DNA of 64,000 nt from UHGV virus genome UHGV-0010228; one strand, given 5' to 3'. A program made the translations under genes and the position numbers. The DNA is from a virus. The notes under the pieces are model-generated. The model searched no databases, had not been told where the DNA came from, and saw nothing but the letters and a program-made list of their open reading frames with translations. Position 1 is the stretch's first letter; every line of letters starts with the position of its first letter. Of the stretch, positions 6,701 through 61,276 are shown piece by piece.

Positions 6701-7300
6701 GATTTATATAATTTTATTTTAACAGATTTATTAGGTAAAATCCATTTAGATATTAAAGCGATTATAGTTTATGCTGAATCAAACTCTCCAATCCCGATCG
6801 ATGCTGATGTTGTAGGTTCTTATATATCTGAAAATGGAAAATTTGCTATGAAATTTCATCAGATAATATCATCAGACTTAGTTACGCATTTATATGGTAG
6901 TAATACGTGGGTGGAATATCCAGCTAACGGTGGGCATCACAATACAATGTATTATGATATATTCTATGAACCAGCAGGAGGTACAACTTATCCTTGTATT
7001 GTTGATAATATTGATAAAATCGAAAAGATGTTTGGTGGTATTGAACCTAAGTATTTAAATAGGTATTATTTTGATTATGATGCTTCAGTACCTAGCAGTG
7101 GTAAATTGAGTTCTATTGAAATGAATTCTCAATTTGAAGGTGAATTTTACTTACCACCGGTATTGGTATATGAGGGATATAATTATAATGATTATATAAT
7201 ACCAGCTAGTGATAATATAGAAAAGAATAGATATTTTGTTAGAATTTATAATAACTATGAACGTGTTGATAGTGAAATTATGACTATTACACTAAAATAA
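797..7300 (+). CDS. giant (2167 aa) BNR/Asp-box repeat protein; putative tail fiber/receptor-binding or glycan-degrading virion protein
   Basis: GAGGTG RBS. At least 10 S-x-D-x-G-x-(T/S)-W motifs (YSTDGKSWT, YSSDGISWS, YSTNGADWT, FSTDGKYWS, YSQDGKLWN, YSSDGKSWT, HSTDGKNWF, VSRDGINWS and others), typical of sialidase-like beta-propellers. N/S/T/Y-rich beta-type composition. Terminator hairpin directly after the stop. Confidence 0.85.
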   Translation: MSDALKNIAIQAEGLISKVTNSISKYKTGITNLGLSKDSSKDNKLSTVINDLESGTIAHALPSPNPVSNDMMRYSMEFYDQKNPNASIAIGTNNAFRLGIDFRVFKYNFLEKIESATWVLSENDAKNGYIYCISEGKLYKITIFKDRAPDVMELVMGKYTLKGRIIQWADDNHPSSKLYLGLVTDKNLLIVFDTTTGVIEELATQPSSEYISYLAQPYPIISTPLSDTAMLHVFVYKDASGILKLGRTTETFRNITTENYTASNIGLYSINNIIYFSILNNNTTELYTFNRTNIVQLGNYANSNKSMYWVNNIAYGINGTSLFSSTSNTFTNLGGLRVANDKFDLFTMVNDQIIIVDKSGIYLSGDTNHLSNNPTLSYYEILGSNIHINSNKNYIAINSAVKPSIIDNYFVSMMYLVRKDDPNQYILYYNPLDYENMGLDVNLYIRIKINGEYKLSTYKINNYDYESTYNEITEFNPLDSLNVIIPLVDVSPYLDSFSSTEKIYDMWCTYSNYNIDSLYSDINKMVINKNLPVKSKGATSFGLDVTSGNYYEWYKQIRGNNGSIGSATIDELNGEIIRILYDTSRSLYYAVGYKNDDDGHSNPLLIIYNESDDDNGWQEVKWDENDDEITFYSATNLEGELYDVSWQSNSLFCVGIYYPNSNSPTGSLYIRYEFDSSGNCSRKYYMTDLIDRNPENVDGKSIIKTGNIFLSSIDNIDKIYNKIPGKYIKSSVYANGMGLYDICANDSVYVASIATSAAANSYPESYYSYGVIPPISRILGMGLLYSSNGIDWYPSSIQAGLYRSIATDGKNFIAVPFYNKDTTKYKLKFSTDGKYWSDLSTTPDEKCTTIYYQNNRWVLRTDSGIWYKTGSITSGSWTKGTTRGGDLYFLNNRWYLMNESDGGSLCYSENLSSWTVIKSSNAYYTDMAYGNGIYVATTNLSGSSSPFLYSSDGISWSYSNLAQPSSYHSLGMSVGYGNNMFVAATDSSMYYSTNGADWTACDGNGIGPATQIIYCDGEWLATNFSNSGSYHSLRNSHDGKWWNANMYDEGDDIDQHGRWISAKICNGKFYGLYGSDMFYNCHPEYAVPPEGNYQYALKIHNNELVKCFKDFTITCNNKDYKYQIAMTKYNLYYEYNNGISYSSFANGLEFEQMDIDYEYKTLIAVGASYNYDSTEKHGGVVVCVGNQKNDNNPQGPWYETSLCNEDYYKKFDKPLLSVKCVNHLWVFGSNGKGLAYFEEIEELTDQKNLTLTQSNITEGVFKTIDYRDGLWVAGRNDSPGGVYYSTDGKSWTAPSVTSMCVNDITHSDKYFVAACEFGINPPSKAPIAYSQDGKLWNFINRNDMLTKLGDGSLNHIDCDKVFSYGDYVIASPEYTGMNYVSENGYQWYYTNVYIGFSDVISNGTVVIGIGGQNYHGIYFSSSDYIASKISSSNYSIGCFYSSKFSSINFSAGCYGGNLWLLGSGSNIYYSTEAQPDSESDWTTKTAHSALTNIYKLYWYNNIYLASDESKGIFYSVDGKTSWTWSNVTQGKYKFMYSLIGQYHYAYNDDVRNTGLYYSSDGKSWTKNPSIVDVYAISNGIANDVVGAFRYGTNAYSTLGIYHSTDGKNWFKYNNGKIKKDSNRILIKKLNDVIVNIGDGYIQYMTKSNTDWKDAIVNSGVGDLSNMIFTDIEAHNDVFVLVGKADKSKDSSGNQVILVSRDGINWSDDKIYFVANSSLAGVEYVDGKFIATSEGGSTYTNSYGIYYSINASEWKSALSTSYLDSNYRFSKPVKINDYWYTTKYNPDTYNQYSTNTVYYSKDLTKFNTTETNAAPISVYDDTENNQYIVGYSDGTIRYTEESVEEYIDSDYILISGYFEGGLSTDVYNKKYIPFTYIINGSNLELDDITLDDAKRIINYDFDNYSSGYNLEVISLSGSKTPYNYTGYDSLPMTKYSFMTLQYQYYELDNKIGWFPKILLYDNEFNCEEVDLYNFILTDLLGKIHLDIKAIIVYAESNSPIPIDADVVGSYISENGKFAMKFHQIISSDLVTHLYGSNTWVEYPANGGHHNTMYYDIFYEPAGGTTYPCIVDNIDKIEKMFGGIEPKYLNRYYFDYDASVPSSGKLSSIEMNSQFEGEFYLPPVLVYEGYNYNDYIIPASDNIEKNRYFVRIYNNYERVDSEIMTITLK

Positions 7301-7310
7301 ATAAAAAATA

Positions 7311-7337
7311 AAAGAGTATGATAATATCATACTCTTT
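7311..7337. terminator. bidirectional intrinsic terminator between convergent genes
   Basis: aaagagtatgat-aat-atcatactcttt perfect stem flanked by A/T runs. Confidence 0.7.
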
Positions 7338-8374
7338 TATTTAATTTGTAAAATAGAATCTTTAATCCTATCTCTTGGTACGCCATAATCTTTTTCATTT
7401 GGATAGATATTTCTATGAATATATATATGATCAAACCAGATCTTATTATATTTACTTAATAAATATCTCTCATGCTCTTCATTGCTCTTATCATTATCTG
7501 AATATATATGAATATTCAGATTGGTATTAATACCTACGTTTAATAAATATCTCAATATTGTATTATACGAAAATCCACAACATGCATAATATAAATTATT
7601 ATCGTTATTACAATTACACACATTCTCATATATAGATATTATATCAAATGTACCTTCAGCTATATGTATATTCATATCTGAAGTATATAATAAATCAAAA
7701 CTATTAGGTATCATATAGAAGTTATTAGGCGATATATTATAGGGGTCTAAATTAAGTTTTATATAACGATTATAATCAGGATTATTCTTTACACATCTCC
7801 AGGTAATTTTACAATTATTATTAGATAAGAATCCAACATAATTTGAATTAATAAAACTTAAAAACTTTGACGATACATTTGGAATTTCATCTATAGAATT
7901 TGCTTTCATAAAATCATATATATCAAATACAACTTTTAAATCCCTCAATTCTTCATATGATAAATATAATCCTAATCTACTATTAATATATTCTTTTTTG
8001 AAATTTAATCTATTATCAGTTGCTAACGGAACTATATATTTCTTATTTCGAATATTCATAAATGGGTTATTTTGAGTTGAATTCTTATTTGATATATTTA
8101 AATTCTTAGCGAAATCACTATCAACTTTACAACCAATATCATCTAGAACATCTGGTGTTAATATTCCACTAGATGGACATTTAAAACATCTATAGAGCAT
8201 TGGTCCATCAGAATTAACGTCTATTTTTATAGAGAAATGCCCATGGTCTGGGTTTTTTGAATCTCCACAGTATGGGCACCTAACAGTCCATTGTGTTTCT
8301 TGAGAATTTGGTATGCATACAGGTAGTGTTTTTATATATCTAATTACTTCTCTCTTTACTTCTTGATTAGTCAT
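7337..8374 (-). CDS. DnaG-type DNA primase (zinc-ribbon + TOPRIM)
   Basis: CPYCGDSKNPDHGH...YRCFKCPSSG matches the DnaG zinc-binding domain (CPFH...yHCFGCG). IHIAEGTFDI and IYSDNDKSNEE match the TOPRIM E and DxD motifs. AGGAGG RBS. Confidence 0.8.
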   Translation of the reverse strand: MTNQEVKREVIRYIKTLPVCIPNSQETQWTVRCPYCGDSKNPDHGHFSIKIDVNSDGPMLYRCFKCPSSGILTPDVLDDIGCKVDSDFAKNLNISNKNSTQNNPFMNIRNKKYIVPLATDNRLNFKKEYINSRLGLYLSYEELRDLKVVFDIYDFMKANSIDEIPNVSSKFLSFINSNYVGFLSNNNCKITWRCVKNNPDYNRYIKLNLDPYNISPNNFYMIPNSFDLLYTSDMNIHIAEGTFDIISIYENVCNCNNDNNLYYACCGFSYNTILRYLLNVGINTNLNIHIYSDNDKSNEEHERYLLSKYNKIWFDHIYIHRNIYPNEKDYGVPRDRIKDSILQIK

Positions 8375-8395: not shown

Positions 8396-8450
8396 TTTAT
8401 AATATATTACTGATTTTTTCTTTGGTCTTAAATCAGTAATATATTATAAA
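8396..8450. promoter_or_regulatory. perfect 21-bp inverted repeat (13-nt spacer) in the divergent intergenic region between the primase and RNAP beta-prime-fragment genes
   Basis: tttataatatattactgattt (8396-8416) is the exact reverse complement of 8430-8450. Located between the two divergent start codons. Confidence 0.5.
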
Positions 8451-10680: not shown

Positions 10681-10755
10681 ACATCATAGTAAGAGGGCAT
10701 TTAATGGTTCTCTTTAGGTTCATTTAATTTTCCTTTTCATGATTTAACCCGAAAT

Positions 10756-10795
10756 AATAGGAGTATTCTATTTAGAATACTCCTATTATTTTTTA
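10756..10795 (+). terminator. intrinsic terminator
   Basis: aataggagtattct-attt-agaatactcctatt stem followed by attttttat. Confidence 0.7.
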
Positions 10796-15177: not shown

Positions 15178-15182
15178 ATAAT

Positions 15183-15217
15183 AAAAGGTATGGTTAATAA
15201 TTAACCATACCTTTTAT
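15183..15217. terminator. bidirectional intrinsic terminator
   Basis: aaaaggtatggttaa / ttaaccatacctttt palindrome between convergent genes. Confidence 0.7.
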
Positions 15218-15223
15218 TATACT

Positions 15224-26048: not shown

Positions 26049-26160
26049 TATTCCACCTCCTTTCTATTTAATAGAAAGATATAACTTATATTTTTTCATA
26101 TAGCATTACTACATTCTCGTGCTCACCTGAATAATATATCGTTATATAATAAAAAGAAAT

Positions 26161-26198
26161 AAAATACAAGATTAGGTTAAACCTAATCTTGTATTTTA
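26161..26198. terminator. intrinsic terminator
   Basis: aaaatacaagattaggtt-aa-acctaatcttgtatttt perfect 18-bp stem. Confidence 0.7.
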
Positions 26199-26214
26199 TT
26201 GTTGAATAAAGACA

Positions 26215-27429
26215 TTATTTAAAGAAGGTGTCTAAGACATTCTGTTTTGCATCTAACGTATCTTCAGCATCACTCATTAATCTAGAATTTGTTGAAGTTT
26301 TCTTTATGAAATCAAATTCGTTTACATCATTTGCTAAATTGATTTCTTTCTGTCGTTTAATTCTTTCTTCAGCTTCCTTAATAACTTCTTTGCATTTTAA
26401 TAATCTTGCATATGGAAGATTCATTCCTGAAAGAATTAAAATAAACTGTCCTAATGTAGTGTTACTTATAGAATAGTTTTCAAATATAGCTAATGGGGTA
26501 CCGATATAATCGGTAAGTTCAGAATAGTTACCAGATTTGGTAGCTTCAGCCATTTCTTCTGGACAATTGACAATAACACCCATCTGCTTAACAATACTAT
26601 CACGATTCATATCTGCCGCTGGTGATCTTCTTATCTTATCGATCATATACTTCTGTATTGAAGCTTTATCAACCTGCTCCTGAGTGACTTTATCTATCAT
26701 ATATACTGCACCGTAACCAGGTTCGCCAACAATAACTCTCATATCATTCTCATCTATCATGCCATTTTTAGATGCATTAAGATATTTACCAGCGATAGTA
26801 TTGATTGATGTTATAATATTATCAGCAACACCTGCATACGCAATATCATTTGAATCTTCTTCATAATACGATAAATCTGCAAGCATATATGATACACCTT
26901 TAATTTCACTTATTTCATTAATACAGTCTAATGTATTATACTGTGCCTGAATACTATCTGAAAGTTTAGGGAGTATCCCATAATACTTTATTATCTTAGA
27001 TGGATACATCTGTGTTAATAAAGATACGACAACTGGCGATATTCCAGATCCTGTACCTCCAGCAGTACTAGACACTACAAATACAATATCTGCACTTTCT
27101 ATAATCTTTGAGAATTCTGCATTAGTAAATAATTCTTTGCCATTATAATTGAAGATCTTCTTAGCATATTCTCTATTCTTACCTGCACCTCTTGCCTCTT
27201 TACCAGCAATAAATGAAGGTATATGTTCATTAACTACAGTATCATTTAAATCTTTTAATGATGAATTAATTGCAAATACACTATATCCTTCTCTATATGC
27301 TCTTGCAACTATTTGATTACCAGCATTTCCAATACCTATAACTGCAATTGACAATTTAACTTTATTTTCAAGATTTTCTCTTACATCAAGTATTGGACTG
27401 GCAGTTTTTATGTTATCTTCATATTCCAT
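26215..27429 (-). CDS. tubulin/FtsZ-superfamily GTPase (PhuZ/TubZ-like phage tubulin)
   Basis: T1-like loop IGIGNAGNQI near the N-terminus and tubulin signature VVSSTAGGTGSGISP (GGGTGSG with one substitution). 404 aa. GGAGG RBS. Confidence 0.8.
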   Translation of the reverse strand: MEYEDNIKTASPILDVRENLENKVKLSIAVIGIGNAGNQIVARAYREGYSVFAINSSLKDLNDTVVNEHIPSFIAGKEARGAGKNREYAKKIFNYNGKELFTNAEFSKIIESADIVFVVSSTAGGTGSGISPVVVSLLTQMYPSKIIKYYGILPKLSDSIQAQYNTLDCINEISEIKGVSYMLADLSYYEEDSNDIAYAGVADNIITSINTIAGKYLNASKNGMIDENDMRVIVGEPGYGAVYMIDKVTQEQVDKASIQKYMIDKIRRSPAADMNRDSIVKQMGVIVNCPEEMAEATKSGNYSELTDYIGTPLAIFENYSISNTTLGQFILILSGMNLPYARLLKCKEVIKEAEERIKRQKEINLANDVNEFDFIKKTSTNSRLMSDAEDTLDAKQNVLDTFFK

Positions 27430-29408: not shown

Positions 29409-31289
29409 TTACTTTAAAACCTCCTCAATATGCTTGTCTAATTCTTCAAATACTTCAGAAGGTGATGGTAAATCTAAAAATATTCTACCAAATTCAAGAT
29501 ATTCTTTTTCAGCATATGAATCAATTAAGAAATTACTTTTATTTATTTTATATTTTGAATATTCATCACCCTTAAATTCAAAACTATCATAAATAGGTAT
29601 ATCAATATCATCTTCATTATCTAAGAATACCTTACCAACTAAAGTTTCATTACATATATTATCAATAGAAGTTGCAGTCGGATATTCTGATCCTATATCT
29701 TCATCTGCGACAAATTGGTGTACATATTTTGCATCTTTACCTAATATCTTAGTACCGGTTGGTTGCATATATAATGGATTCATTACATATGCACCTTGAT
29801 ATTTTTTCTTTTTCTTATCAGAATTATCTTCTTCCTCAGATTCATCATCTTCTAAATCGACAAGATCTTCAATATCAATCTCTCCGATATTAGGATCTAT
29901 TTTATCTAATAATGCTTCATAGTTACTAACTTTCTTGATATTCTTAAGCTTATTTTTATTAGTACCTAATACATATCCTCTTTGAAAAGCAAATAATGCG
30001 AATGAATATAATACAATAAGTGTCGTTGTAAATGATTGATGTGGTAAACACATATTCTTATATAATCTACTATATATAGTATTCATATCTTTAGTATGAG
30101 TTTCAATACCATACTGAAGTAAAACGTCTTTGAGGTTATATATAACAGCAGTTTCAAAATCCACATAATATAAATATCTTAATTCTGCAGATTCAGAATA
30201 ATCTAACTTAGTATCTCTAAGTTCTTTTTGAGCTATATAATTTAACTTTGTAGACTGCAATTTACCTCGACCTGACCTTATACCTGCATATTGAACCATA
30301 TCATCAACAAACGTACACATTGTATTAAGCTTTGCTAAATGTTTTCTTTTATGTACAACTGGATTTGTATCCTCATAAAATGATATAGGACTTCTCAATT
30401 CTATTCTATCATCAGGAATTATATCATTAGGATCGTATCCTAATTCTGATAATCTCAGGATTAAGTTCTGTAAATCATAAGGTTCGTTCCATATCTCAAC
30501 ATAATCGTTATCACATGCATGGATTACATCCCATAAAGTTCTTAATAGATCAATTTCAGTATCGAATAGTAAGAAGTTATATTCAAAATCAGACCCATAA
30601 GATTCATCAAACATTTCATGAACCTTTTTTTGCAATTCAGGGCCAGATTTCTTAAACTTATCGATCTGACTATACAATGCAGATCTTAAACCATCTTCAG
30701 TATATATTGGTTTTAATGAAGGTAATCTCTTTCCTTCAGGAATATCGTCTTTACATAATATAAACGTATACGCATTCTTAGTTGATCCATCTATATAAGT
30801 TACTAAGTTAATTGGATGCTTACCAGCTTCTGGAAATTTATCAGTTCGTATAATATCATTTTCTATATCGAGGTATCCTATACTTAATTCTATTGCTTTA
30901 TCAGTTGGATATTCATGAATAAAATTTAAGATATAATAATTCTCAATATTTAAGTCTGCATTAAATACATAAGGTGAAACTCTAGCTTCATCTTTACTAA
31001 TTCCCATTATCTTTCCAATTTCAGACCATCTAGATCTATAGTGTACTTTATGTTTAGTACAATCTTCGATCTTAAACCAATCTCTGAAGTGAGTATAATT
31101 TCTAAGTTCAGGCTTGCATATATAGACTTCTATTTCAGGTCTCTCTATTTGTAAAACACCCTTTTGTCCCGTATCAATATCCTTATATATAAATGTCAAT
31201 ACATCTGGTTTACTAAAATCATCCCCAGAATATATTACATTCAATGGAATTATGTTGTTATGATACTGATCTTCTGGTAAAAATTTCAT
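29409..31289 (-). CDS. hypothetical 626-aa protein with internal acidic patch (candidate major non-virion protein)
   Basis: AAAGGAGG RBS. DLVDLEDDESEEEDNSDKKKKK patch. Length is in the range of chimallin-type nucleus-shell proteins, but no sequence evidence supports that. Confidence 0.7.
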   Translation of the reverse strand: MKFLPEDQYHNNIIPLNVIYSGDDFSKPDVLTFIYKDIDTGQKGVLQIERPEIEVYICKPELRNYTHFRDWFKIEDCTKHKVHYRSRWSEIGKIMGISKDEARVSPYVFNADLNIENYYILNFIHEYPTDKAIELSIGYLDIENDIIRTDKFPEAGKHPINLVTYIDGSTKNAYTFILCKDDIPEGKRLPSLKPIYTEDGLRSALYSQIDKFKKSGPELQKKVHEMFDESYGSDFEYNFLLFDTEIDLLRTLWDVIHACDNDYVEIWNEPYDLQNLILRLSELGYDPNDIIPDDRIELRSPISFYEDTNPVVHKRKHLAKLNTMCTFVDDMVQYAGIRSGRGKLQSTKLNYIAQKELRDTKLDYSESAELRYLYYVDFETAVIYNLKDVLLQYGIETHTKDMNTIYSRLYKNMCLPHQSFTTTLIVLYSFALFAFQRGYVLGTNKNKLKNIKKVSNYEALLDKIDPNIGEIDIEDLVDLEDDESEEEDNSDKKKKKYQGAYVMNPLYMQPTGTKILGKDAKYVHQFVADEDIGSEYPTATSIDNICNETLVGKVFLDNEDDIDIPIYDSFEFKGDEYSKYKINKSNFLIDSYAEKEYLEFGRIFLDLPSPSEVFEELDKHIEEVLK

Positions 31290-31386
31290 TGTCTTTATCC
31301 TCCTTTATCAAATAAATAATATATCTATTTATAGATTTTATTTATATTTTAACAGATTATTAATCGTAAGAAATCATGAAAGGACG

Positions 31387-32430
31387 ATGAATATTATGGA
31401 CTTAAGTAAAAAACTTTCATTTCTAGTAAATGAAAAAACATCCCTTGATGTTACGTTTGATAATAATAATCCTGAGGATTCATCTATTGAAGACACAATA
31501 GTAGAGAAACCAAAAAAGAGAAAGAAAGATTCAGAATTTATAAATTCTCTTAAAGAGTCTGATATAGATGAAGATTCAAAATCTCTTTCAGCAGCAACTA
31601 AATTACTTGATCAATTTGAATCTGAAGATTTAGCAGCTGAATTTGATATGTTTTTAGATAACGATTTCGATGAAGAAGATATTGAATTAAAGAATTCATT
31701 AATCTCATTAGGACGTAAGTATGCAAGAGAAACTACAGTTACTGCTGAAACTTCAGAGATAATACAAGCATTCTCAGGATCAGAGAAATATTTAAGAAAT
31801 TTATATGATGAAATCGAAACTGATAAATCTAAAATTCAAAAAGATTTGGATCAAATGAGAATGAGCAGGAGTCGTAACTATAAAACTATTGCAGAATTAA
31901 ATGAACAAAAAAATTCATATATTAATTCTCAGATAAGCATTGTTAAAGAACTTAACTCTATTAAGAAATCACAATTTGATCTTAAATATAAAGATCAGAA
32001 AGCTAAAAATGGAACTGAAGATGGAAATAATGATATTTCATCATCAATGATAAAGAATCTTTTCAGCATTGGTAAAGGTGGAATGATTGATGCTTTAGGT
32101 GGTTATGAAGAAATATCTGGTGCTAGTGATGCTGGCATTCATAGCGAAATTTATGATGATGATAAAATTCATGACAAATATTTTAGTTCTGACGAGGAAG
32201 AATCTGAGGGTGATTTATATTTAAAATATGAAAATATGAACATTGAATTGATCATGCTTATAGATGAGGATGATAATATATTAAATATTATCGCTGAAGA
32301 TGATGATGGAAATGTGATACCTGATTATCCTGTACCTGAAATTAATGATGGGATGGGGTGCACATTCAATAAAACAGTTATGACTGCAGAAGATGGTTAT
32401 CATCGAAAATATAAATTACGGATTGTATAA
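31387..32430 (+). CDS. hypothetical acidic protein (D/E-rich)
   Basis: 347-aa ORF; followed by a strong terminator. Confidence 0.65.
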   Translation: MNIMDLSKKLSFLVNEKTSLDVTFDNNNPEDSSIEDTIVEKPKKRKKDSEFINSLKESDIDEDSKSLSAATKLLDQFESEDLAAEFDMFLDNDFDEEDIELKNSLISLGRKYARETTVTAETSEIIQAFSGSEKYLRNLYDEIETDKSKIQKDLDQMRMSRSRNYKTIAELNEQKNSYINSQISIVKELNSIKKSQFDLKYKDQKAKNGTEDGNNDISSSMIKNLFSIGKGGMIDALGGYEEISGASDAGIHSEIYDDDKIHDKYFSSDEEESEGDLYLKYENMNIELIMLIDEDDNILNIIAEDDDGNVIPDYPVPEINDGMGCTFNKTVMTAEDGYHRKYKLRIV

Positions 32431-32440
32431 AAAAAAAATA

Positions 32441-32466
32441 AAAGGGGATTCGTTTGAATCCCCTTT
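32441..32466. terminator. bidirectional intrinsic terminator
   Basis: aaaggggattc-gttt-gaatcccctttt. Confidence 0.8.
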
Positions 32467-32489
32467 TTAACTGTGTATACGAGCTGCAT

Positions 32490-33119
32490 CTATATAGTTG
32501 CAGCTTTTTTCTGAGTCTTATTATTGACCCCTTCTTTTATGGAGTCAATAACAGATCTCTCAGCGTTCTTGTTCTTATGAACACTCTTTGCGGCCTTCTT
32601 CATAGCCGCATTATATGCCGCGGCATTTCTAGCCGTAGCCTTAGATACGGCTTTGCGACCGTACTTTTCAGCAGCGCTGAGATATTTCATCTCAGCGTCA
32701 CATTTATCGGCTTTATCGCCATAATCTGACGACTCGACAGTATTTGTATTAACAACAAATCTGTCGTATGAATCCTCCCAAAGAGGATTCTCCATTATGC
32801 TCATATTGAGCATATGAATCAGCGAAAGCAACTGCTTTCTCTGAAATATATTATTCAGAGAAAGCAGTTGCTTGCCTATGACAATGCCATAGTCCCCGAT
32901 CATAAGATCGAGATTGTTAATTTCAAATATTCCGATTGGAATATCGATCGGAATATTTGAATTCTTTTCCTTCTTAGAGTTAAACGATGTTAACTCTAAG
33001 ATTTTATCCTCTGTAGTAAACAGAGGATAAAATCTTTTGCCATCAGCAACATATCCTTTTATTGACACAGGCTTAAGCTTGCCTGTGTTTTCTTTTTTAA
33101 AATTAAAAATCTTTAACAT
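32490..33119 (-). CDS. hypothetical protein with GC3-rich Ala/Lys-rich C-terminal region
   Basis: GGAGG RBS. The 3' roughly 270 nt (32490-32760) is markedly GC-richer than the genome. Contains a 20-bp perfect inverted repeat at 32826-32873. Confidence 0.6.
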   Translation of the reverse strand: MLKIFNFKKENTGKLKPVSIKGYVADGKRFYPLFTTEDKILELTSFNSKKEKNSNIPIDIPIGIFEINNLDLMIGDYGIVIGKQLLSLNNIFQRKQLLSLIHMLNMSIMENPLWEDSYDRFVVNTNTVESSDYGDKADKCDAEMKYLSAAEKYGRKAVSKATARNAAAYNAAMKKAAKSVHKNKNAERSVIDSIKEGVNNKTQKKAATI

Positions 33120-33207
33120 ATATTTACCTCCATGTTAAATAATACTAGAAGCATTATTGCTTCTAGTATTTTCTAATTATATTTTATTCACTTAAATAAT
33201 ATATTGG

Positions 33208-33516
33208 TTAAAAATCATACAATCTCGATAAATTATCAGTACTACGATATTCCATTCCAGTAATGCAATTCTTATAATATGTAAGAATATCATCAGCATT
33301 ATATCTACGTATTGTGTGCGATACTATCTTATCATTATCGCGTTTAATGCATAGTATTGGTCTATTCTGATCATCATATTCTCTTTCATATGCAATACCT
33401 GTAGAATTCCAATAGAATATTTCATTACCATTATCATCATATCGATATGATTCTGAAAATCCCTTACCATTTTCAAATTCAAGTATTCTTCCATGTTCAT
33501 CATATATTTTACCCAT
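33208..33516 (-). CDS. YD-repeat (RHS-repeat-like) small protein
   Basis: YDEHGRILEFENG, YRYDDNGNEIFYW, REYDDQNRPILCI and RLYDF fit the Y-x-YD-x-x-G/N-R-L/I repeat. AGGAGG RBS. Confidence 0.65.
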   Translation of the reverse strand: MGKIYDEHGRILEFENGKGFSESYRYDDNGNEIFYWNSTGIAYEREYDDQNRPILCIKRDNDKIVSHTIRRYNADDILTYYKNCITGMEYRSTDNLSRLYDF

Positions 33517-33541
33517 TTTTTTTTAACCTCCTACATAAAAA

Positions 33542-33576
33542 ATAAGTCTATACATTATAGAAATGTATAGACTTAT
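33542..33576 (-). terminator. intrinsic terminator
   Basis: ataagtctatacat-tatagaa-atgtatagacttat stem. Confidence 0.7.
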
Positions 33577-33595
33577 TTAATTTATTAAGACTTAT

Positions 33596-35005
33596 TTACT
33601 TAAAGAATAATTCTGAGAGTGAATCAGCTATATCATCCTGTAATGATCCTGTTGTAACATTATTCTTTAAAGCTGTACATATATTTTCAGCCGCTTTAAG
33701 AATATTATCATCTACTGTAACTGGACGAGCTGGACGCTTAGAGAATATTTCAACTCTACGTTCATTACCAATTGGTGGATACGTCTTGCGGATAGAGCTA
33801 TAATCACCAAAGTGATTAGTATTCGTTCTAACACCCGTAATATCACTTATTTCTTCACAATAAGATGTTGGCTTAAGATACTGCTTAATAGCATTCATAT
33901 CAACATCTTCTGATATAATTTCATCATAATGAGATATATCAATAATACCCTCATAGAACATATTAATCTTATTAGGAATCAATTCGTATTCCTCCTGATC
34001 AAATATTTCTTCAAGATATGCTTCAATTGACTCATCTGATATATTGCATGATAAATGAATTGTGAGATAATCAATCGTCATCTCTTTCTCAAATTTAATG
34101 AGCTTACCATTTCTGGTAGTATGCCAGATATAACCTCCATTATAATCTCTTCTACGAGTAATTATATTATCATCATCAGTAGTATCTGCCATATAAATGA
34201 GACTATGATTCTCGTCGTAAGCATTAATAAGGCATCTATGTGAATTAAATATGCCGTCGCTAGATACATTGCCATGATAAATATGCTCTAATTCATAGTC
34301 ATCTTTATCATAGAGATATTCATGAGTGTTAACAACTTTGCCATTTACGTAATATGTAATATTATACTTCTTGGCACCGTCATTAAGATATGATATTTCT
34401 TCTTCCTTTATGATATTATTATACTGCAGATATGCAGTATATATCAGACGATCATTATCGTCATATTTATATATTTCACTAGCACCTTTATTATTTTTAG
34501 TCATCAATAATCGATGCTTATTGTCATAATGATTTTCGATCAGTCTTACACTCGGAAAATCACCATCCTCTATACCATCATGGCAATCACTCCAATATCT
34601 TTCAATAATAGTTTCTTTAGTACCATTATGATTGATATATGTGTCACGCTGAAAAGTACTTTCATCAATAGCTGCATTATTCTCATCATTAGTTACTGAA
34701 ATCTTTCTATAGAATGAAGTACCGTAGTTATACGAGATAGTCTTCTCGTATGATTTTTCATTTTCTGAGTTAGTCTTATATGACTCAAATGAAAGATCGC
34801 CCTTCTCATTATAATTTCTTTTAAGGACTGATAATCCATCCGCATCATTTATAGTCCTAGAGAATAAACGAGGATTCATCTGATCTGGGTCAGATGCATC
34901 TTCAATATTAATGATCGTTTCTGTAATAGCATCATCCCCAGTAATTCTCATCAATTTCTCAACTGACTTTGCTTCTTCCATAAACTTTTCAAAATTAAAA
35001 CCCAT
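33596..35005 (-). CDS. YD-repeat (RHS-repeat-like) protein
   Basis: HYDNKHRLLMT, YKYDDNDRLIYTAY, YLYDKDDYELEHIY, AYDENHSLIYMAD and RRDYNGGYIWHT repeats. AAGGAGG RBS. Confidence 0.7.
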   Translation of the reverse strand: MGFNFEKFMEEAKSVEKLMRITGDDAITETIINIEDASDPDQMNPRLFSRTINDADGLSVLKRNYNEKGDLSFESYKTNSENEKSYEKTISYNYGTSFYRKISVTNDENNAAIDESTFQRDTYINHNGTKETIIERYWSDCHDGIEDGDFPSVRLIENHYDNKHRLLMTKNNKGASEIYKYDDNDRLIYTAYLQYNNIIKEEEISYLNDGAKKYNITYYVNGKVVNTHEYLYDKDDYELEHIYHGNVSSDGIFNSHRCLINAYDENHSLIYMADTTDDDNIITRRRDYNGGYIWHTTRNGKLIKFEKEMTIDYLTIHLSCNISDESIEAYLEEIFDQEEYELIPNKINMFYEGIIDISHYDEIISEDVDMNAIKQYLKPTSYCEEISDITGVRTNTNHFGDYSSIRKTYPPIGNERRVEIFSKRPARPVTVDDNILKAAENICTALKNNVTTGSLQDDIADSLSELFFK

Positions 35006-38275: not shown

Positions 38276-38485
38276 AGTTATTCTCCTTTATATCCTATGT
38301 AACTATAATTTATTCGTTTAAATAATATATCTATATAAATTATTTTTTATATCTCGGTATAAACATAAAAGTAAAGGTGATTGATTACTAACCTTTTTGT
38401 CAAAATTCATTTTATGTATGTTATTTTAATAATAACATACACCTCCAATTAAATAAGGCTGAAAAATATTGTGATTAACGGCAAT

Positions 38486-38513
38486 AAAAGAGAGTGCATT
38501 TGCACTCTCTTTT
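38486..38513 (-). terminator. intrinsic terminator within the 372-bp non-coding gap
   Basis: aaaagagagtgca-tt-tgcactctctttt. Confidence 0.6.
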
Positions 38514-38533
38514 ATTGTATATATATATATATT

Positions 38534-38574
38534 AATTAATGCTATATATCCATTATGGATATATAGCATTAATT
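38534..38574. repeat. perfect 19-bp inverted repeat (3-nt spacer) in non-coding region
   Basis: aattaatgctatatatcca-tta-tggatatatagcattaatt. Confidence 0.5.
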
Positions 38575-38647
38575 GCAGGAATAGGCAATTCATTGAGTAA
38601 AACCATTAGCACATGATTTTACACTTATGTTTATTAGATATAAAAAA

Positions 38648-39388
38648 TTACCAATAATATATTGCATCAGTATCAAGATTATACCCTTCGTTATCCCAAG
38701 TTTCAAGAAGCTGCTTCTTTTCATCGTGAGCATTTTGCCATTCATCAATCTTTAATGATATTGTACCAACACCTACTTCTAACTGATCTTTTCTCTTTAA
38801 TTGATTATAAAGAAATTCTTCTAAGTCTAATACGGTCAATTGCCTTAAGTGAGTCATAGCTCTAGGTGGTATTGTTGATAATGATAAATCATGAGTTAAT
38901 GCTATTTCACATCTATAAATACCACCATTCCATCCATTAAATATTGCTAATTTATTAGGTGGAATAAATCTAAATGTTGGTGATTTCTGCATATTTCTAG
39001 ATAATGCTGATGCCATCTGAATATCCGCAACTGTTTCCATTATTACATCAGCACCACCTAATGCTAATGAAGGGAAGTATAAATCATCAGTTCCTCCGCC
39101 ATATGATCCAGCTTCAATATTAAGAACTCCTAATATTGTAGAATCTTGATATTCCTTATATGGAATTTCATAAGTAACTGATCTATCAAAATATCTCATA
39201 GAATCATCTACTATCATATTTGGAGTAATCTGTATCATCTTTATATATGGTGAACGTTGTGAAAATTCTTTTAATGCAGATTGCTGAAATCTCTGTATTA
39301 ATCTAGTATCATCTACCGGTAATGGGATATCTTTTATTCCCATGTCTTCCTTGCATAATGTTAAAAATTCCGAAAGGTTATAAAACAT
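38648..39388 (-). CDS. hypothetical protein
   Basis: AAAGGAGA RBS; 246 aa. Confidence 0.65.
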   Translation of the reverse strand: MFYNLSEFLTLCKEDMGIKDIPLPVDDTRLIQRFQQSALKEFSQRSPYIKMIQITPNMIVDDSMRYFDRSVTYEIPYKEYQDSTILGVLNIEAGSYGGGTDDLYFPSLALGGADVIMETVADIQMASALSRNMQKSPTFRFIPPNKLAIFNGWNGGIYRCEIALTHDLSLSTIPPRAMTHLRQLTVLDLEEFLYNQLKRKDQLEVGVGTISLKIDEWQNAHDEKKQLLETWDNEGYNLDTDAIYYW

Positions 39389-40127: not shown

Positions 40128-40763
40128 TTACCATTCTCCTTTATTAAATCCTATACGTTTACGATATTCATCTTCATTCATGTATGAAGATGTATTAATT
40201 GAGTGCTTTAACACTTCTAAACATAATATCATTTCATTAGTGAAATTAAAATCTGATAATATATCATATAATCTCACTAATTCATTTACGGATAAGTCTA
40301 TCCTATTTTCTAATAAATTTATAAATAAATATACACCAGGTGTATATTTATTATTTGCTATCTCTAACACACATGGTGTTATCTTTAATAACTGATCTTC
40401 AAAATAAGATCTATCTGTAGTTGAATATAGCTGTTTATAATCAGCATTTAATAATAAAATACCATCATCAGTTTCAACATACATGTCTTTATATAACTCT
40501 CCACCGAACCATTTTATTGCTCTTTCAATGGTTCTTAATACATCTTTAAAATTAGCTGTAGTTATTTTAAATGAACGATACTTTAGCATTTCACTTGCAA
40601 TTCCAGTTTGATATGGTAACGCTAAATATAATATACCATTAGAATTTACATTGTATATTTTATTTAAATCATATGCTGAAACTGGAGGAAAATAAAATTG
40701 AAGATTATATTTCTTCGTTTTATATATCATTCTTTTTATTGGGTAATTATTTAGTATACTCAT
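40128..40763 (-). CDS. hypothetical protein
   Basis: Start moved to MSILNNYP, preceded by GGAGG. Confidence 0.6.
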   Translation of the reverse strand: MSILNNYPIKRMIYKTKKYNLQFYFPPVSAYDLNKIYNVNSNGILYLALPYQTGIASEMLKYRSFKITTANFKDVLRTIERAIKWFGGELYKDMYVETDDGILLLNADYKQLYSTTDRSYFEDQLLKITPCVLEIANNKYTPGVYLFINLLENRIDLSVNELVRLYDILSDFNFTNEMILCLEVLKHSINTSSYMNEDEYRKRIGFNKGEW

Positions 40764-40790
40764 TTTATCCTCCAAAATTTAAGAAAAAGT

Positions 40791-40822
40791 TTGATTCTGT
40801 GTAAAATTTTACACAGAATCAA
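40791..40822 (-). terminator. palindromic hairpin overlapping the helicase gene stop
   Basis: ttgattctgtgtaaaa / ttttacacagaatcaa perfect palindrome. Confidence 0.5.
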
Positions 40823-42290
40823 AATCAACTACAAAGCAATCTTTAATTTTGGTTTTATTAAGATATTTCAAACGCTGCTTTAATTTTTTCTTACAATACG
40901 GAAATCCATTATCAGTTACAATAAAGTATATTGCATCTTTACCATCTTTTAATGGTCTGGATCTACCTGCAGCCTGATTATCTTCTACTTTATTACTTTG
41001 ATTTAATCCTACTACATAGCGTATATCATCAACATCAATACCTGTGCTAAATGATTTATATGTAGAGACAATAACATTTGCTTCATTCTTTGCAAATTCT
41101 TTTTCTTCTGCAGGTACTTTACTATGATATCTTCCAAATGTAAATTTATCTTTCCATACACCTTTAAGATACATTGTGATTTCATCTACATGCGCTATCT
41201 GGGTTACAAGTATTAATGCTCTGTGATCATCTTGAATAGCACTCATTATAAAATCTAGCACTTTAAATATAATACCTTTTCGAATTTGATATCGCATATA
41301 ATTATCAGCACTATATCCATATCTATTATATATTGCCATAGATTCTGCTGTTGATGGGTGACTATCATATGTAATATTGATGATCTTTGTATATTTCATT
41401 GTCTTACTAATATCTTCAGATGGAGTAATTATTTTACACTTATTAAAGATCTGATAATATAATTTTTCTTTCTTTCTATCTCCTTGAGCATAGTCTGCTG
41501 ACATATATATCGTTTTATCTACATTTGATAATGCATTTATCTTTACTATATTAGACATGTTACGATGACTCTCATCAAATATTAATAACCCTATACCAAA
41601 ACCATTCATGATTCTCTCTAATCTAGAATAATCTGTACGTTTAAGATATGATGTTATAATACCTGGTGTTGATAGATAAATATCGTAATCATTATATGCT
41701 TCTGGCTCTTCATATACTTTATCTAATATTTCTGATGATGAGATTATCATTATTTTATTAGAATCTTTATTAGTCTTATTAATAAATGTAGATTTCCATT
41801 GATTAAGAATTTCAGTTGAAAAGCATAGTATCATAGTTTTACACTGTAATACTGATGTTATATATACTCCTAATACAGTTTTACCAGATCCTGTTTGAGC
41901 ATTAACAAAGAATTCTTTATAATAATCGTCAAGTAATATTGATTCAGATATTTCACCCTGCATATCTCTTAATACAATATCGTTATTTAATTTAAAGAAT
42001 TGAGATTGCTTTTTAGATCTTGTAGATCGCATATTTCTTACAAGATAATCGCCAAAATTAAATGTTAGCATTTCCGATGATTGATTGTGGGTAATAAAAG
42101 CCGGTAATCCATTATAGTTATCAACATAGAATCCTGTAACTTCATTTCGTTTATGATATACTTTATCATATATTGAAGTTACATTTTCAAGAGTTCGACA
42201 CTGATGTTTTTTATATGGTGATATTATAGTGCCATTTTTTGATTTAATTATTTCTCCCATAATATTTATTTTCCTTTCATAATAATCCAT
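40809..42290 (-). CDS. SF2 DNA helicase (DEAD/DExH-box; UvsW/RAD25-like)
   Basis: Walker A AQTGSGKT, DExH LLIFDESHRN, motif VI QAAGRSRP. The first ATG lacks an RBS; an in-frame ATG 30 nt downstream has AAAGGAAA. Confidence 0.75.
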   Translation of the reverse strand: MDYYERKINIMGEIIKSKNGTIISPYKKHQCRTLENVTSIYDKVYHKRNEVTGFYVDNYNGLPAFITHNQSSEMLTFNFGDYLVRNMRSTRSKKQSQFFKLNNDIVLRDMQGEISESILLDDYYKEFFVNAQTGSGKTVLGVYITSVLQCKTMILCFSTEILNQWKSTFINKTNKDSNKIMIISSSEILDKVYEEPEAYNDYDIYLSTPGIITSYLKRTDYSRLERIMNGFGIGLLIFDESHRNMSNIVKINALSNVDKTIYMSADYAQGDRKKEKLYYQIFNKCKIITPSEDISKTMKYTKIINITYDSHPSTAESMAIYNRYGYSADNYMRYQIRKGIIFKVLDFIMSAIQDDHRALILVTQIAHVDEITMYLKGVWKDKFTFGRYHSKVPAEEKEFAKNEANVIVSTYKSFSTGIDVDDIRYVVGLNQSNKVEDNQAAGRSRPLKDGKDAIYFIVTDNGFPYCKKKLKQRLKYLNKTKIKDCFVVDFDSV

Positions 42291-44555: not shown

Positions 44556-45080
44556 ATGAATTATTCGGTTATAAAAAAACATGATGTAGCAAATGGTCCT
44601 GGAGTTAGAGTTTCACTTTATGTGTCTGGATGTTCGCATCATTGTAAAAATTGTTTTAATCCTGAGACTTGGGATAAAAATTATGGTTCAATATTTACTT
44701 TAAAAGAAAGAATTGAAATAATTGATGCATTAAGACCTGATTATATTGAAGGTCTAACAATATTAGGCGGAGATCCAATTGAACCTTATAATATTTCTGA
44801 AGTTATTAAACTTATAAAGAGTGTAAAGGTTGTGTATCCAGATAAATCTATTTGGTTATATACTGGATATAAATTTGAAGATCTATTATCTGAGAAATTA
44901 ATCCCCGATCGTAGTATTAGAGATGATATTACAAGATATATTGATGTTATTGTAGATGGAGAGTTCGAAGAAGAAAATAAAGTTATTGATTTAAGATTTA
45001 GGGGATCTACAAATCAAAGAATCATCGATGTTAAAAAGAGTGTTAAAGAAGATTCCATTATATTATGGACAGATAAATAA
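44556..45080 (+). CDS. nrdG: anaerobic ribonucleotide reductase activating protein (radical SAM)
   Basis: GPGVRVSLYVSGCSHHCKNCFNPETW matches the NrdG G-x-G-x-R...GC-x3-C-x2-C-x-N signature. GAGGAGG RBS. Confidence 0.85.
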   Translation: MNYSVIKKHDVANGPGVRVSLYVSGCSHHCKNCFNPETWDKNYGSIFTLKERIEIIDALRPDYIEGLTILGGDPIEPYNISEVIKLIKSVKVVYPDKSIWLYTGYKFEDLLSEKLIPDRSIRDDITRYIDVIVDGEFEEENKVIDLRFRGSTNQRIIDVKKSVKEDSIILWTDK

Positions 45081-45104
45081 GGATAATGCATATGCATTAT
45101 CCTT
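45079..45104. terminator. bidirectional intrinsic terminator
   Basis: aaggataatgca-tatg-cattatcctt palindrome between convergent genes. Confidence 0.7.
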
Positions 45105-45111
45105 ATTAATT

Positions 45112-48007: not shown

Positions 48008-48012
48008 TAAAT

Positions 48013-48040
48013 AGGATATGAACTTTAAAGTTCATATCCT
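48013..48040. terminator. bidirectional intrinsic terminator between the two convergent beta-prime C-fragment genes
   Basis: aggatatgaacttt / aaagttcatatcct perfect palindrome. Confidence 0.7.
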
Positions 48041-48049
48041 ATAATATTT

Positions 48050-50341: not shown

Positions 50342-50377
50342 AAAGCGATATACTATCAATTGATAGTATATCGCTTT
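50342..50377. terminator. intrinsic terminator
   Basis: aaagcgatatactatcaa / ttgatagtatatcgcttt 18-bp palindrome followed by a T-run. Confidence 0.7.
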
Positions 50378-51302: not shown

Positions 51303-51326
51303 GTCAATCCTCCTTTCATAAAATAT

Positions 51327-51356
51327 AGGTTAATGTAGTATATACTACATTAACCT
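51327..51356. terminator. intrinsic terminator
   Basis: aggttaatgtagta-ta-tactacattaacct. Confidence 0.7.
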
Positions 51357-51368
51357 AATTGTTAGTTA

Positions 51369-57963: not shown

Positions 57964-58410
57964 TTACTTATATCCAGTTGACCCAAAACCGCCTCTATTA
58001 TTATTGCTGAGTTTTTCAACGATCTTAAACTTTGTGCGTGGCATCTTTTCAAGAATTTCGCACTGACAAATTCTTTCATCAAATGGGATTACTGTGTCCC
58101 TGAGGGCAAGAACTCCAAATTTTATAATATCACCATCACCACAATACGATTCGTCAATAACCCCACTACTAACCATAATAATTCCATATTTTTTATAAGT
58201 ACTACTTCTAGGATATAATTGCATTCTACATCCATTAGGAAGTCTTACCGATATTCCAAGTGATATTTCATAATAATCGCCCTTCTTAAGCACTAGATCA
58301 TGCTCAGCACAACGTAAGTCTATCATATCACCACGTCTAGTCTGCTCGATCGGTGTAATTCCTTCATGATACTTAATATCAACATAATATGTCTTATTGA
58401 TTGAACTCAT
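57964..58410 (-). CDS. dut: dUTP diphosphatase
   Basis: YPRSST (motif 2), SGVIDESYCGD (motif 3, G-x-ID-x-D/E-Y-R/C-G). 148 aa. AAGGAGG RBS. Confidence 0.85.
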   Translation of the reverse strand: MSSINKTYYVDIKYHEGITPIEQTRRGDMIDLRCAEHDLVLKKGDYYEISLGISVRLPNGCRMQLYPRSSTYKKYGIIMVSSGVIDESYCGDGDIIKFGVLALRDTVIPFDERICQCEILEKMPRTKFKIVEKLSNNNRGGFGSTGYK

Positions 58411-58471
58411 TTTGTCCTCCTTATAACAAATAAAGTCTGTATTTAATTTATAAAAAAGTTAAATAAAATAT

Positions 58472-58502
58472 AAAAAAGAAAACCATAATGGTTTTCTTTT
58501 TT
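58472..58502 (-). terminator. intrinsic terminator
   Basis: aaaaagaaaacc-ataat-ggttttcttttt. Confidence 0.65.
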
Positions 58503-58503
58503 T

Positions 58504-58542
58504 GTCTGTAATCGTAATTAATCAACAATTACGATTACAGAC
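58504..58542. repeat. perfect 16-bp inverted repeat (7-nt spacer) embedded in an SD-preceded 18-codon micro-ORF (58518..58574, minus strand)
   Basis: gtctgtaatcgtaatt-aatcaac-aattacgattacagac. Minus strand reads AGGAGGTGG-6nt-ATG AAA AAA AGA... (MKKRDTSRDGMSVIVIVD*). Confidence 0.45.
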
Positions 58543-58614
58543 ATTCCGTCTCTTGACGTATCTCTTTTTTTCATGTTATCCACCTCCTGTTCACTTAAAT
58601 AATATATCAATGTA

Positions 58615-59091
58615 TTATTTAAGTTTGACAGTCAGCATTGTGTTGTCAGGTACTTTACGTCCATAATTCGCATATTGATCTGCAAGCATATTTCCGGGTA
58701 TATTGGAATGACCTTTTACCCACTGAAAGGAAACATTCATTCCTGATGATTTATATTGATTAACTAATGCTTTATAACTTGCAGTAGCAGGTTTATTAGT
58801 CTTCCATTTTCCATTTACCCAAAATCCTAAACCATTATAATCATGATATATGATTATATTATTGAAGCTATTTTCTGCGCAATATTTAAGAGCAACTTCA
58901 ACAGCTTTAATTTCACCGCCAACATTCCACATGTCAACAAGCTCTTTATCAGTGACCTTACCATATATTACCCTTTCAGACCTTATTCCTTCTTTATCAG
59001 GAATATTACATTTTATAACTGCAGCATAACCACAGGTCTTATCTCTTCTAAGATAAGACCCATCAGTATATATTTCATAATCATAAGTCAT
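58615..59091 (-). CDS. rnh: ribonuclease H
   Basis: MTYDYEIYTDGS (RNase H DGS motif) and C-terminal VKGHSNIPGNMLADQYA (VKGHxGxxxNExxDxLA). Start moved to the ATG after AAGGAGA. Confidence 0.85.
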   Translation of the reverse strand: MTYDYEIYTDGSYLRRDKTCGYAAVIKCNIPDKEGIRSERVIYGKVTDKELVDMWNVGGEIKAVEVALKYCAENSFNNIIIYHDYNGLGFWVNGKWKTNKPATASYKALVNQYKSSGMNVSFQWVKGHSNIPGNMLADQYANYGRKVPDNTMLTVKLK

Positions 59092-61224: not shown

Positions 61225-61231
61225 ATAAAGA

Positions 61232-61266
61232 AAGAAGATATATAGTTACATACTATATATCTTCTT
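61232..61266. terminator. bidirectional intrinsic terminator
   Basis: aagaagatatatagt-tacat-actatatatcttctt. Confidence 0.7.
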
Positions 61267-61276
61267 TAATCTATAT

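Follow-up and report, generated by a model that had tools for sequence, protein, structure and literature searches.

We present here a jumbo-phage gene whose messenger RNA (mRNA) is predicted to fold into local hairpins along its entire length. The gene lies in a stretch of 64,000 nucleotides (nt) from the virus genome UHGV-0010228, referred to below as the window, where it occupies open reading frame (ORF) 32490..33119 on the minus strand and encodes a protein of 209 amino acids (aa). The window has a G+C content of 29.1% and encodes fragments of a multisubunit RNA polymerase beta subunit, a PhuZ-type tubulin, an NAD-dependent ligase, a helicase, a dUTPase, an endolysin, and an SbcC-like protein. 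Its family-B DNA polymerase is ~25% identical to counterparts in Bacillus phages AR9/PBS1 and in Staphylococcus and Fusobacterium jumbo phages. No DNA-level match to the window was found by megablast among 50,697 phage records, and the whole window contains no tRNA genes and no Rfam 15 match at gathering score.

The gene was compared across four metagenomic lineages of one jumbo-phage clade: the window lineage, L001, L002, and L005. Close variants (L007 and L008 of the window, L003 and L004 of L002, and L006 of L005) differ by 0 to 1 substitutions and add nothing; L007 and L008 show an additional 3-nt difference in the length of a T-run. All relatives share the gene order SbcC-like gene, 432- to 492-aa gene, 102-aa gene, and 209-aa gene. 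The ORF is held at 206 to 209 codons in the four lineages with all indels in-frame, and the ratio of nonsynonymous to synonymous divergence (dN/dS) is 0.05 to 0.15; it is therefore a genuine protein gene, and it is restricted to this clade. L009, a more distant relative with 44% identity in the SbcC-like protein, lacks any structured gene in the surrounding ±8 kb, and a scan with the 102-aa neighbor for further relatives returned generic YD/RHS-repeat proteins only. In the window, the two genes immediately upstream, at 33208-33516 (102 aa) and 33596-35005 (469 aa), both on the minus strand, carry RHS/YD-repeat-like motifs (Pfam RHS_repeat, E value of 2e-4, at its threshold), and the 469-aa gene is strongly divergent among lineages (49 to 75% aa identity).

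Homologs of the 209-aa protein fall into four clusters only, of 100, 90, 82, and 66% identity, among 5.8 billion proteins searched. An exhaustive profile search of 1.84 billion representative proteins with a hidden Markov model returned no further homolog beyond the family itself and P0005, an Ig-like repeat protein that was rejected as a relative (hhalign probability, 18%). IMG/VR, JGI metagenomes, and GTDB genomes yielded no further relative, inside or outside the clade. The protein has no significant match (E ≤ 0.1 to 1) among Pfam, PHROGs, NCBIfam, and PDB profiles; the PDB sequence profile search gave noise only (E > 0.5), and a match of one homolog, P0004, to NCBIfam blaACI (E value of 0.003 and 17 bits against a 640-bit cutoff) was taken as chance. 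The AlphaFold2 model built from the 4-sequence alignment was unusable (predicted local distance difference test score, 35.5).

The mRNA of the 630-nt ORF has a minimum free energy (MFE) of -255.9 kcal/mol (-0.41 per nt) versus -156.7 ± 9.1 for synonymous shuffles, in which the protein is unchanged and the same codons are permuted (z score of -10.9, and -13.1 on repetition). Among eight further genes of this length, z scores were -0.8 to -4.5 and the MFE was ~-0.20 per nt, and the first 630 nt of 22 other genes gave MFEs of -92 to -152 kcal/mol. The minus strand of 32430-33200 (771 nt) folds at -310.9 kcal/mol, with a z score of -20.9 relative to dinucleotide shuffles, and the plus strand reaches -30. 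In a G+C-corrected sliding 300-nt scan, no part of the 64 kb stands out in folding as strongly as this gene, on either strand (residual z of -6.6 and -6.4; next best, -3.7), and a residual z of ~-6 spans five to six consecutive scan windows there. The complete 180-kb genome of the related AT-rich jumbo phage JD-Fnp1 has no 300-nt stretch below -93.8 kcal/mol, versus -137 at the 209-aa gene.

The predicted fold consists of ~22 successive short-range hairpins that tile the minus strand from 33170 to 32440 and take in the leader, the ribosome-binding site (RBS) and AUG, the whole coding sequence, and the terminator (Table 1). Of these, 18 to 19 lie inside the coding sequence, counting one that encloses the stop codon, and 88% of the predicted pairs span less than 60 nt. 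The tiling begins and ends at the borders of the transcription unit. Perfect hairpins of at least 15 bp elsewhere in the window are almost all intergenic and terminator-like. A G+C stem followed by a U-tract, as in intrinsic terminators, occurs on the minus strand only at 32467-32440 and in none of the internal hairpins on the sense strand. No two hairpins have the same sequence, and within the window 32430-33200 matches only its own inverted arms and, elsewhere, 13- to 18-nt segments attributable to chance; a dispersed repeat element is therefore not their source. The RBS hairpin contains a match to an AR9-type late promoter (AACA-N6-TA), which was rejected because the relatives do not conserve it; a CsrA-type sponge was rejected as well, there being no GGA loops.

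Table 1. Positions of the 209-aa gene, its predicted hairpins, and palindromes between other genes of the window
Feature	Coordinates	Strand	Remarks
Protein-coding gene, 209 aa, clade-restricted ORFan, mRNA predicted to be wholly folded into local hairpins	32490..33119	-	
5′ leader hairpin, 13 bp, loop of 4, dG -16	33141..33170	-	Conserved in 4/4 lineages; U-A to C-G double change in L005
RBS/start-codon hairpin, UUUAACAUG / UAUGUUAAA	33112..33139	-	GGAGG in loop, AUG in 3′ arm
Coding hairpin, 8 bp (NTGKLKPVS)	33065..33088	-	Helix 4; three pairs with double changes across homologs
Coding hairpin B, 17-bp perfect arms, loop of 5 (KRFYPLFTTEDKIL)	32998..33036	-	
Coding hairpin C, 12-bp perfect arms, loop of 6 (ILELTSFNSKK)	32972..33001	-	4-nt overlap with hairpin B
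Coding hairpin D, 15-bp perfect arms (NSNIPIDIPIGIFE)	32922..32961	-	Internal 12-nt direct repeat offers alternative pairing
Two coding hairpins, 7 bp each (LDLMIG, DYGIVIG)	32876..32912	-	Helix 8; two pairs with double changes
Coding hairpin A, flagged 20-bp perfect inverted repeat	32822..32875	-	22 bp in fold, dG -33
Three coding hairpins	32735..32818	-	32791-32818 (12 bp, holds ATGCTCATATTGAGCAT palindrome), 32770-32790 (9 bp, ENPLWEDS), 32735-32766 (12 bp)
Eight hairpins, Ala/Lys-rich, GC-richer 3′ half	32513..32730	-	Include 32676-32696 (9 bp), 32513-32559 (18 bp)
Hairpin around stop codon (AGCUGCA...UGCAGCU)	32482..32505	-	
Bidirectional intrinsic terminator, 12-bp stem, A-run and T-run flanks	32440..32467		Common to convergent gene 31387..32430
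Intergenic palindromes	7306-7342, 8396-8450, 10752-10791, 15178-15220, 26158-26200, 38482-38517, 38534-38574, 40790-40823, 45076-45107, 48011-48042, 50342-50377, 51326-51357, 61231-61267		

An initial annotation of this DNA had flagged a 20-nt perfect inverted repeat inside the ORF, and this repeat is present (arms 32826-32845 and 32854-32873, 8-nt spacer; hairpin A), with a chance expectation of ~2e-5 in 64 kb of this composition by arithmetic from base frequencies. A second palindrome reported there, ATGCTCA-TAT-TGAGCAT, also exists, four bases away from the position given (32797-32813, not 32793-32809), and three further perfect hairpins of the same ORF (B, C, and D) come in addition. The same annotation had suggested an embedded structured element; the idea holds in essence, but the scale is that of the whole transcription unit, which is predicted to consist of hairpins.

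The gene has a GC content of 0.373 and a third-codon-position value (GC3) of 0.40, compared with a GC content of 0.29 for the window and a mean GC3 of 0.19 for its 50 listed ORFs, this gene included (highest other ORF, 0.26). Background codon usage predicts a GC3 of 0.196 for the same protein, and 0.397 is observed. The over-used codons are GCC, GCG, GGC, CTG, CTC, TCG, GTC, AAG, and GAG. The initial annotation was right that GC-ending codons exceed background (GCC+GCG, 0.33 versus 0.10; GGC, 0.50 versus 0.08; CTG, 0.25 versus 0.02) but not that the GC3 excess is limited to the 3′ 270 nt, since codons 1-105 have a GC3 of 0.38 and codons 106-209 one of 0.41. The GC-rich segment that it described is there (0.417 at 32490-32760, with a peak of 0.48 in 150-nt windows), against a background of 0.291 rather than 0.27. 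The halves differ in total GC only through the first and second codon positions, the C-terminal half being rich in Ala, Gly, and Arg (GC1, 0.45; GC2, 0.39). In the four lineages, GC3 inside and outside stems is 0.47 and 0.30, 0.44 and 0.28, 0.35 and 0.22, and 0.43 and 0.32. The extreme fold is thus obtained mostly through synonymous codon choice, with the extra G/C mainly in stems. Two other sources of the odd codon usage were rejected: an overlapping antisense gene, because L002 and L005 have disrupted antisense ORFs, and high-expression codon bias, as the enriched codons are G- or C-ending four-fold ones (GCC, GGC, CTG, and TCG) and TTC is used in 0 of 8 cases.

The initial annotation had also considered a recently acquired foreign segment. 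Acquisition of the gene, or of its 3′ part, from a higher-GC source would account for its GC and GC3 and for the fall in identity to L001 at the gene start, but we give it next to no probability. GC3 is equally high in both halves, with no compositional boundary in the gene, and it is raised in every relative (0.37, 0.29, and 0.37 in those with 90, 82, and 66% identical proteins versus 0.155 to 0.18 in the SbcC-like and 102-aa neighbors), while the synonymous divergence (dS) of the gene between lineages is 1.0 to 2.2, near saturation; together these exclude a recent foreign origin. With synonymous sites saturated, amelioration would be expected to have removed any foreign signature, yet the relatives agree in composition and in synteny; the protein and contig searches described above found no homolog outside the clade. 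A GC3 anomaly in a phage gene thus need not signify horizontal transfer. In 100-nt bins, identity to L001, the closest distinct relative, is 0.93 to 0.98 in the 102-aa gene and the spacer, falls to ~0.82 near the start of the 209-aa gene, and then stays there; this drop at 33119/33120 could reflect faster evolution of the gene or a recombination boundary.

Strong folding is a property of the gene in all four lineages, with synonymous-shuffle z scores of -13.1, -13.5, -9.7, and -8.1 versus -0.7 to -3.4 for neighboring genes. When the structure derived from the window is laid over the alignment, 84% of cells are paired, versus ~41% with partners slid by 1 to 3 columns. Double changes occur at 29 pairs, versus 5 to 11 in the slid controls and 14.6 ± 2.8 in shuffles, where 0 of 500 reach 29; RNAalifold finds them at 30 of 193 pairs. 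Covariation extends to the noncoding leader and RBS hairpins, with one double change each in L005; the RBS stem, of 9 to 11 bp in all four lineages, there carries a U-A to A-U swap. Within the coding sequence, hairpin C (helix 6) is perfect in L001 through two double changes, and L005 has one double change, which substitutes both encoded residues (E to A and S to A). Three double changes leave the 15-bp stem of hairpin D (helix 7) perfect in L002. In the 3′ half, helices 17, 20, and 21 are 89 to 100% paired across homologs, with double changes in helices 20 and 21. Individual stems turn over. Hairpin B has a 10-bp stem in L001, is degenerate or re-registered in L002 and L005, and sits in another register in L002; its 17-bp extension is therefore lineage specific. 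A 27-bp helix in L005 stands where the others have two smaller ones. What is conserved is being folded, not one particular structure, and folding is maintained amid sequence divergence by double (compensatory) changes and stem replacement. The comparison with relatives that the initial annotation had proposed, in which shared composition and an unconserved hairpin would mark an ordinary Ala/Lys-rich domain, gave a divided answer: the composition is common to the relatives and the 20-bp stem is only 10 to 13 bp there, yet a hairpin at the site and the gene-wide tiling are conserved.

The strand at which folding acts was assessed from G·U and A·C pairs inside or abutting helices defined by Watson-Crick pairs only, a definition that is strand symmetric. 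G·U pairs number 50 and A·C pairs 21 (p = 0.0008), where composition predicts about equal numbers, and the energy gained by allowing G·U is larger in the sense than in the antisense strand in three of four lineages. An RNA-level, sense-strand reading of the hairpins is favored, short of proof, on these grounds and on the match of the tiling to the transcription unit; the strand signal is not unanimous, L001 being symmetric. The hairpins could instead serve as DNA, as cruciforms or single-stranded hairpins for replication or priming, packaging, recombination, or protein binding that overlap the gene by chance. Phage origins can lie inside genes, as the lambda origin does in gene O, and this alternative agrees with the excess folding of both strands, with the perfect Watson-Crick pairing of the long stems, and with the equality of the strands in L001. 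It appears quite improbable, however, given that the hairpins differ from one another, lack iterons and any common motif in loop or stem, and recur nowhere else in the window; that the tiling matches the transcription unit, RBS and stop-codon hairpins included; and that it is the sense strand that shows an excess of G·U. The locus, moreover, has no skew extremum and only two short 2-copy repeats, unlike a lambda-type origin, and specific binding sites would not be expected to show the replacement of individual stems seen between lineages.

Serial terminators acting on antisense read-through from the convergent gene 31387..32430 would be another use for the hairpins. Five plus-strand sites in or just upstream of the gene have a terminator-like hairpin and a T-tract, and 31200-33700 holds 9 terminator-like sites on both strands versus 0.6 expected. 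Such a barrier is nonetheless very unlikely: T-tracts follow from an A-rich coding strand, most of the hairpins have none, a strong bidirectional terminator already separates the two genes, and the G·U excess is on the sense and not the antisense strand.

The origin of the flagged stem can be traced in the alignment. The core of hairpin A, CUUUCUCUGAA-N8-UUCAGAGAAAG (10 to 13 bp), is common to all four lineages, and the outer 9 bp are found in the window lineage only. The older left flank encodes GRS in L001 and L002 and GDS in L005. Relative to L001, 8 of 10 adjacent bases (alignment columns 332-341) are changed, in the window lineage only, and the derived AAGCAACUG complements the invariant right arm, CAGUUGCUU, at every base. 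The change turns GRS into GKQ and yields a duplicated KQLLSL. The peptide duplication that the initial annotation reported thus exists, but the true minus-strand ORF repeats KQLLSL (GKQLLSLNNIFQRKQLLSL) and not QRKQLLSL; the doubled QRKQLL (QRKQLLSL and then QRKQLLAY) comes from a spurious plus-strand ORF. The region is a direct repeat (26 nt, 81%) as well as an inverted one, and the near-palindromic AAGCA-NN-UGCUU accounts for this double nature and for both copies of KQLLSL. The change bears the signature of a replication template switch, a single template-switch-like event having made the 20-bp stem from one of 10 to 13 bp; independent substitutions would not do so. A second case is found in L005 (columns 249-258), where the left arm of hairpin D is swapped for the reverse complement of the adjoining segment (CGATTGGAA / TTCCAATCG). 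Our claims of template switching are limited to these two manually verified cases, the automated cluster search having been too noisy (mis-registered windows).

Quasi-palindrome mutation by template switching was reportedly described in Ripley's T4 work. Template switching during replication is known to create and repair stems in single events (Monttinen and Loytynoja 2022, PMC8794818). As in that process, a cluster of adjacent substitutions here makes one arm the reverse complement of the other, so that multi-base "compensatory" changes come in one step; unlike the cases described for rRNA, other RNA genes, and mutation spectra, it lies inside a protein-coding sequence and changes the peptide. 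The locus thereby offers a clear case of template-switch mutation reshaping a protein sequence while building RNA or DNA structure. Template switching explains the origin of stems, not their retention.

The hairpins may also be a neutral by-product, perfected at a local template-switch hotspot, perhaps driven by high or convergent transcription, and functionless. The signature at hairpin A and the reverse-complement replacement at hairpin D in L005 speak for this, as do the long stems, perfect in Watson-Crick pairing and free of G·U; the dS and dN of the gene, 2 to 4 times those of the 102-aa and SbcC-like neighbors; and the lack of a G·U over A·C bias in the changes of relatives at the window's pairs. 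Transcription reportedly stimulates quasi-palindrome mutation in yeast (PMC3820800). We consider the neutral origin unlikely all the same. Template switching leaves base composition unchanged and therefore cannot yield a doubled, stem-concentrated GC3 in all lineages, and the 50 G·U versus 21 A·C pairs beside helices point to selection on the sense RNA. Purifying selection of the strength found here would purge most multi-base events. The effect also ends exactly at the gene borders and is shown by no other gene among ~50, and the equally divergent 469-aa neighbor is unstructured (z scores of -1.3 in L002 and -3.3 in L005).

We regard it as an even prospect, judging from sequence comparison, that selection keeps the whole transcript of this real, clade-restricted gene, leader and terminator included, folded as a continuous string of ~22 short-range hairpins. 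Synonymous codon selection, with extra G/C in stems, would keep the hairpins gene-wide, and long perfect stems would arise and be repaired in single template-switch steps, one arm being recopied from the complement of the other, as seen at the flagged stem and presumed for the rest. Selection would favor compactness of the mRNA, with little single-stranded sequence left accessible. An mRNA of this kind might withstand single-strand-specific endoribonucleases and escape base pairing by antisense or guide RNAs, and it would be long-lived and slowly translated, in both initiation and elongation, with its start codon held in a stem.

Several points weigh against selection for folding. The covariation counts come from only four lineages and hence from few independent events, and third codon positions in pairs show no more conservation than those left unpaired (18/63 versus 13/55, not significant). 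L001 is symmetric (10 G·U and 10 A·C), and its antisense strand folds equally well; relatives' changes at the window's own pairs give about equal numbers of G·U (49 to 59) and A·C (44 to 52). Both strands fold far better than shuffles, and the longest stems are purely Watson-Crick, with no G·U, as would also follow from a DNA-level role or a purely mutational origin. The synonymous divergence of the gene is 1.4 to 3 times that of the 102-aa and SbcC-like genes, so that a local peculiarity of mutation or recombination could be at work. We infer the function of the tiling, and no reason emerges why the 209-aa gene alone would need such an mRNA.

In a bolder form, which we hold only tentatively and think rather doubtful, the transcript would be a natural "structure-optimized" jumbo-phage mRNA, fed by template switching and almost wholly double-stranded, that survives RNA-directed attack or shut-off or acts as a hairpin decoy. 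Its attackers might be host or phage endoribonucleases, abortive-infection RNases, or the guide pairing of Cas13 or type III systems. The mRNA is reportedly the stage left exposed in jumbo phages that form a nucleus, and this phage, with its PhuZ-like tubulin, might form one. If true, this would be an RNA-level counter-defense or persistence strategy not described for DNA phages. The hairpin array might alternatively be a product in its own right, a dual-function RNA serving as decoy or sponge for a host factor (RNase III or an RNA-sensing defense) or as a small-RNA precursor. The transcript has ~22 stable stems in 730 nt with the property conserved rather than the sequence, and in the window lineage a perfect duplex of 20 to 22 bp reaches the length cut by RNase III. 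There is, however, little probability in it: the hairpins share no loop motif for a binding protein and have no Rfam match, the longest duplexes are not conserved, and no link to any partner was found.

A full-text literature search returned no account of a DNA-phage protein gene tiled end to end with hairpins and kept so by selection. Coding-region RNA structure, the creation of stems by template switching, codon-driven compaction in engineered mRNAs, and terminator and leader hairpins are each already known. Intrinsic terminators and 5′ stabilizer hairpins resemble the elements at 32440-32467 and 33141-33170, whereas the 19 to 20 internal hairpins lie in an ORF and lack sense-strand U-tracts. 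LinearDesign and Mauger 2019 are reported examples of codon choice used to raise mRNA base pairing and half-life. Structure-optimized synthetic mRNAs (reviewed in PMC12319323) likewise use synonymous codons to maximize self-pairing, with GC3 raised, MFE much lowered, and the protein unchanged, but are engineered, whereas this gene would be a natural counterpart in a bacterial virus. Conserved structures in viral coding sequences, including those of the RNA phages MS2 and Qbeta and of influenza HA, share with it ORF-embedded pairing kept by covariation and synonymous choice (PMC6563262); they belong to RNA genomes or are separate elements, each with its own role, whereas here the whole mRNA of a double-stranded DNA jumbo-phage gene is involved and its stems turn over. 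In-frame palindromic elements (Rickettsia palindromic elements and REP/MITE-type repeats; REPIN, PMC3116915) are also hairpin-forming DNA translated within a protein, but are dispersed copies of one sequence family, unlike the hairpins here. If selection for folding is confirmed, the gene would be a natural precedent for engineered structure-optimized mRNAs and would make gene-wide self-pairing a selectable trait of a bacterial-virus transcript. It would also be a small, clean system (630 nt, four natural variants) for the effects of coding structure on mRNA lifetime, translation, and RNA-targeting immunity.

Other features of the window and its relatives were recorded. At 797-7300 (plus strand), a 2,167-aa ORF that matches no PHROG at E ≤ 0.001 may encode a large protein, virion or polymerase-like, of a kind that jumbo phages typically have. 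The tubulin/PhuZ-like gene at 26215-27429 (minus strand; Pfam Tubulin on the identical L007 product, PHROG 4733) hints that the phage replicates in a compartment of the spindle or nucleus type. The short-read contigs of all six relatives L001 to L006 end in or just past the terminator palindrome (window-equivalent ~32430-32470), which in these lineages is perfect and 26 to 30 nt long; the shared ends are most likely an assembly break, not a genome end. ORF 40128..40775 (minus strand) has the second-lowest structure z score (-4.5) among the same-size genes tested and contains a 14-bp perfect palindrome with a 1-nt loop at 40324-40352. The next-strongest folding outliers are two intergenic clusters of 3 hairpins each, at 38300-38700 and 58350-58750 (residual z, ~-3.5), which may be regulatory or terminator/promoter blocks. 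Most intergenic gaps hold long perfect palindromes with 16- to 21-bp arms, mostly with loops of 0 to 2 and many with A-run and T-run flanks; their appearance is that of bidirectional terminator-like hairpins distributed genome-wide, with greater length and perfection than intrinsic terminators usually have.

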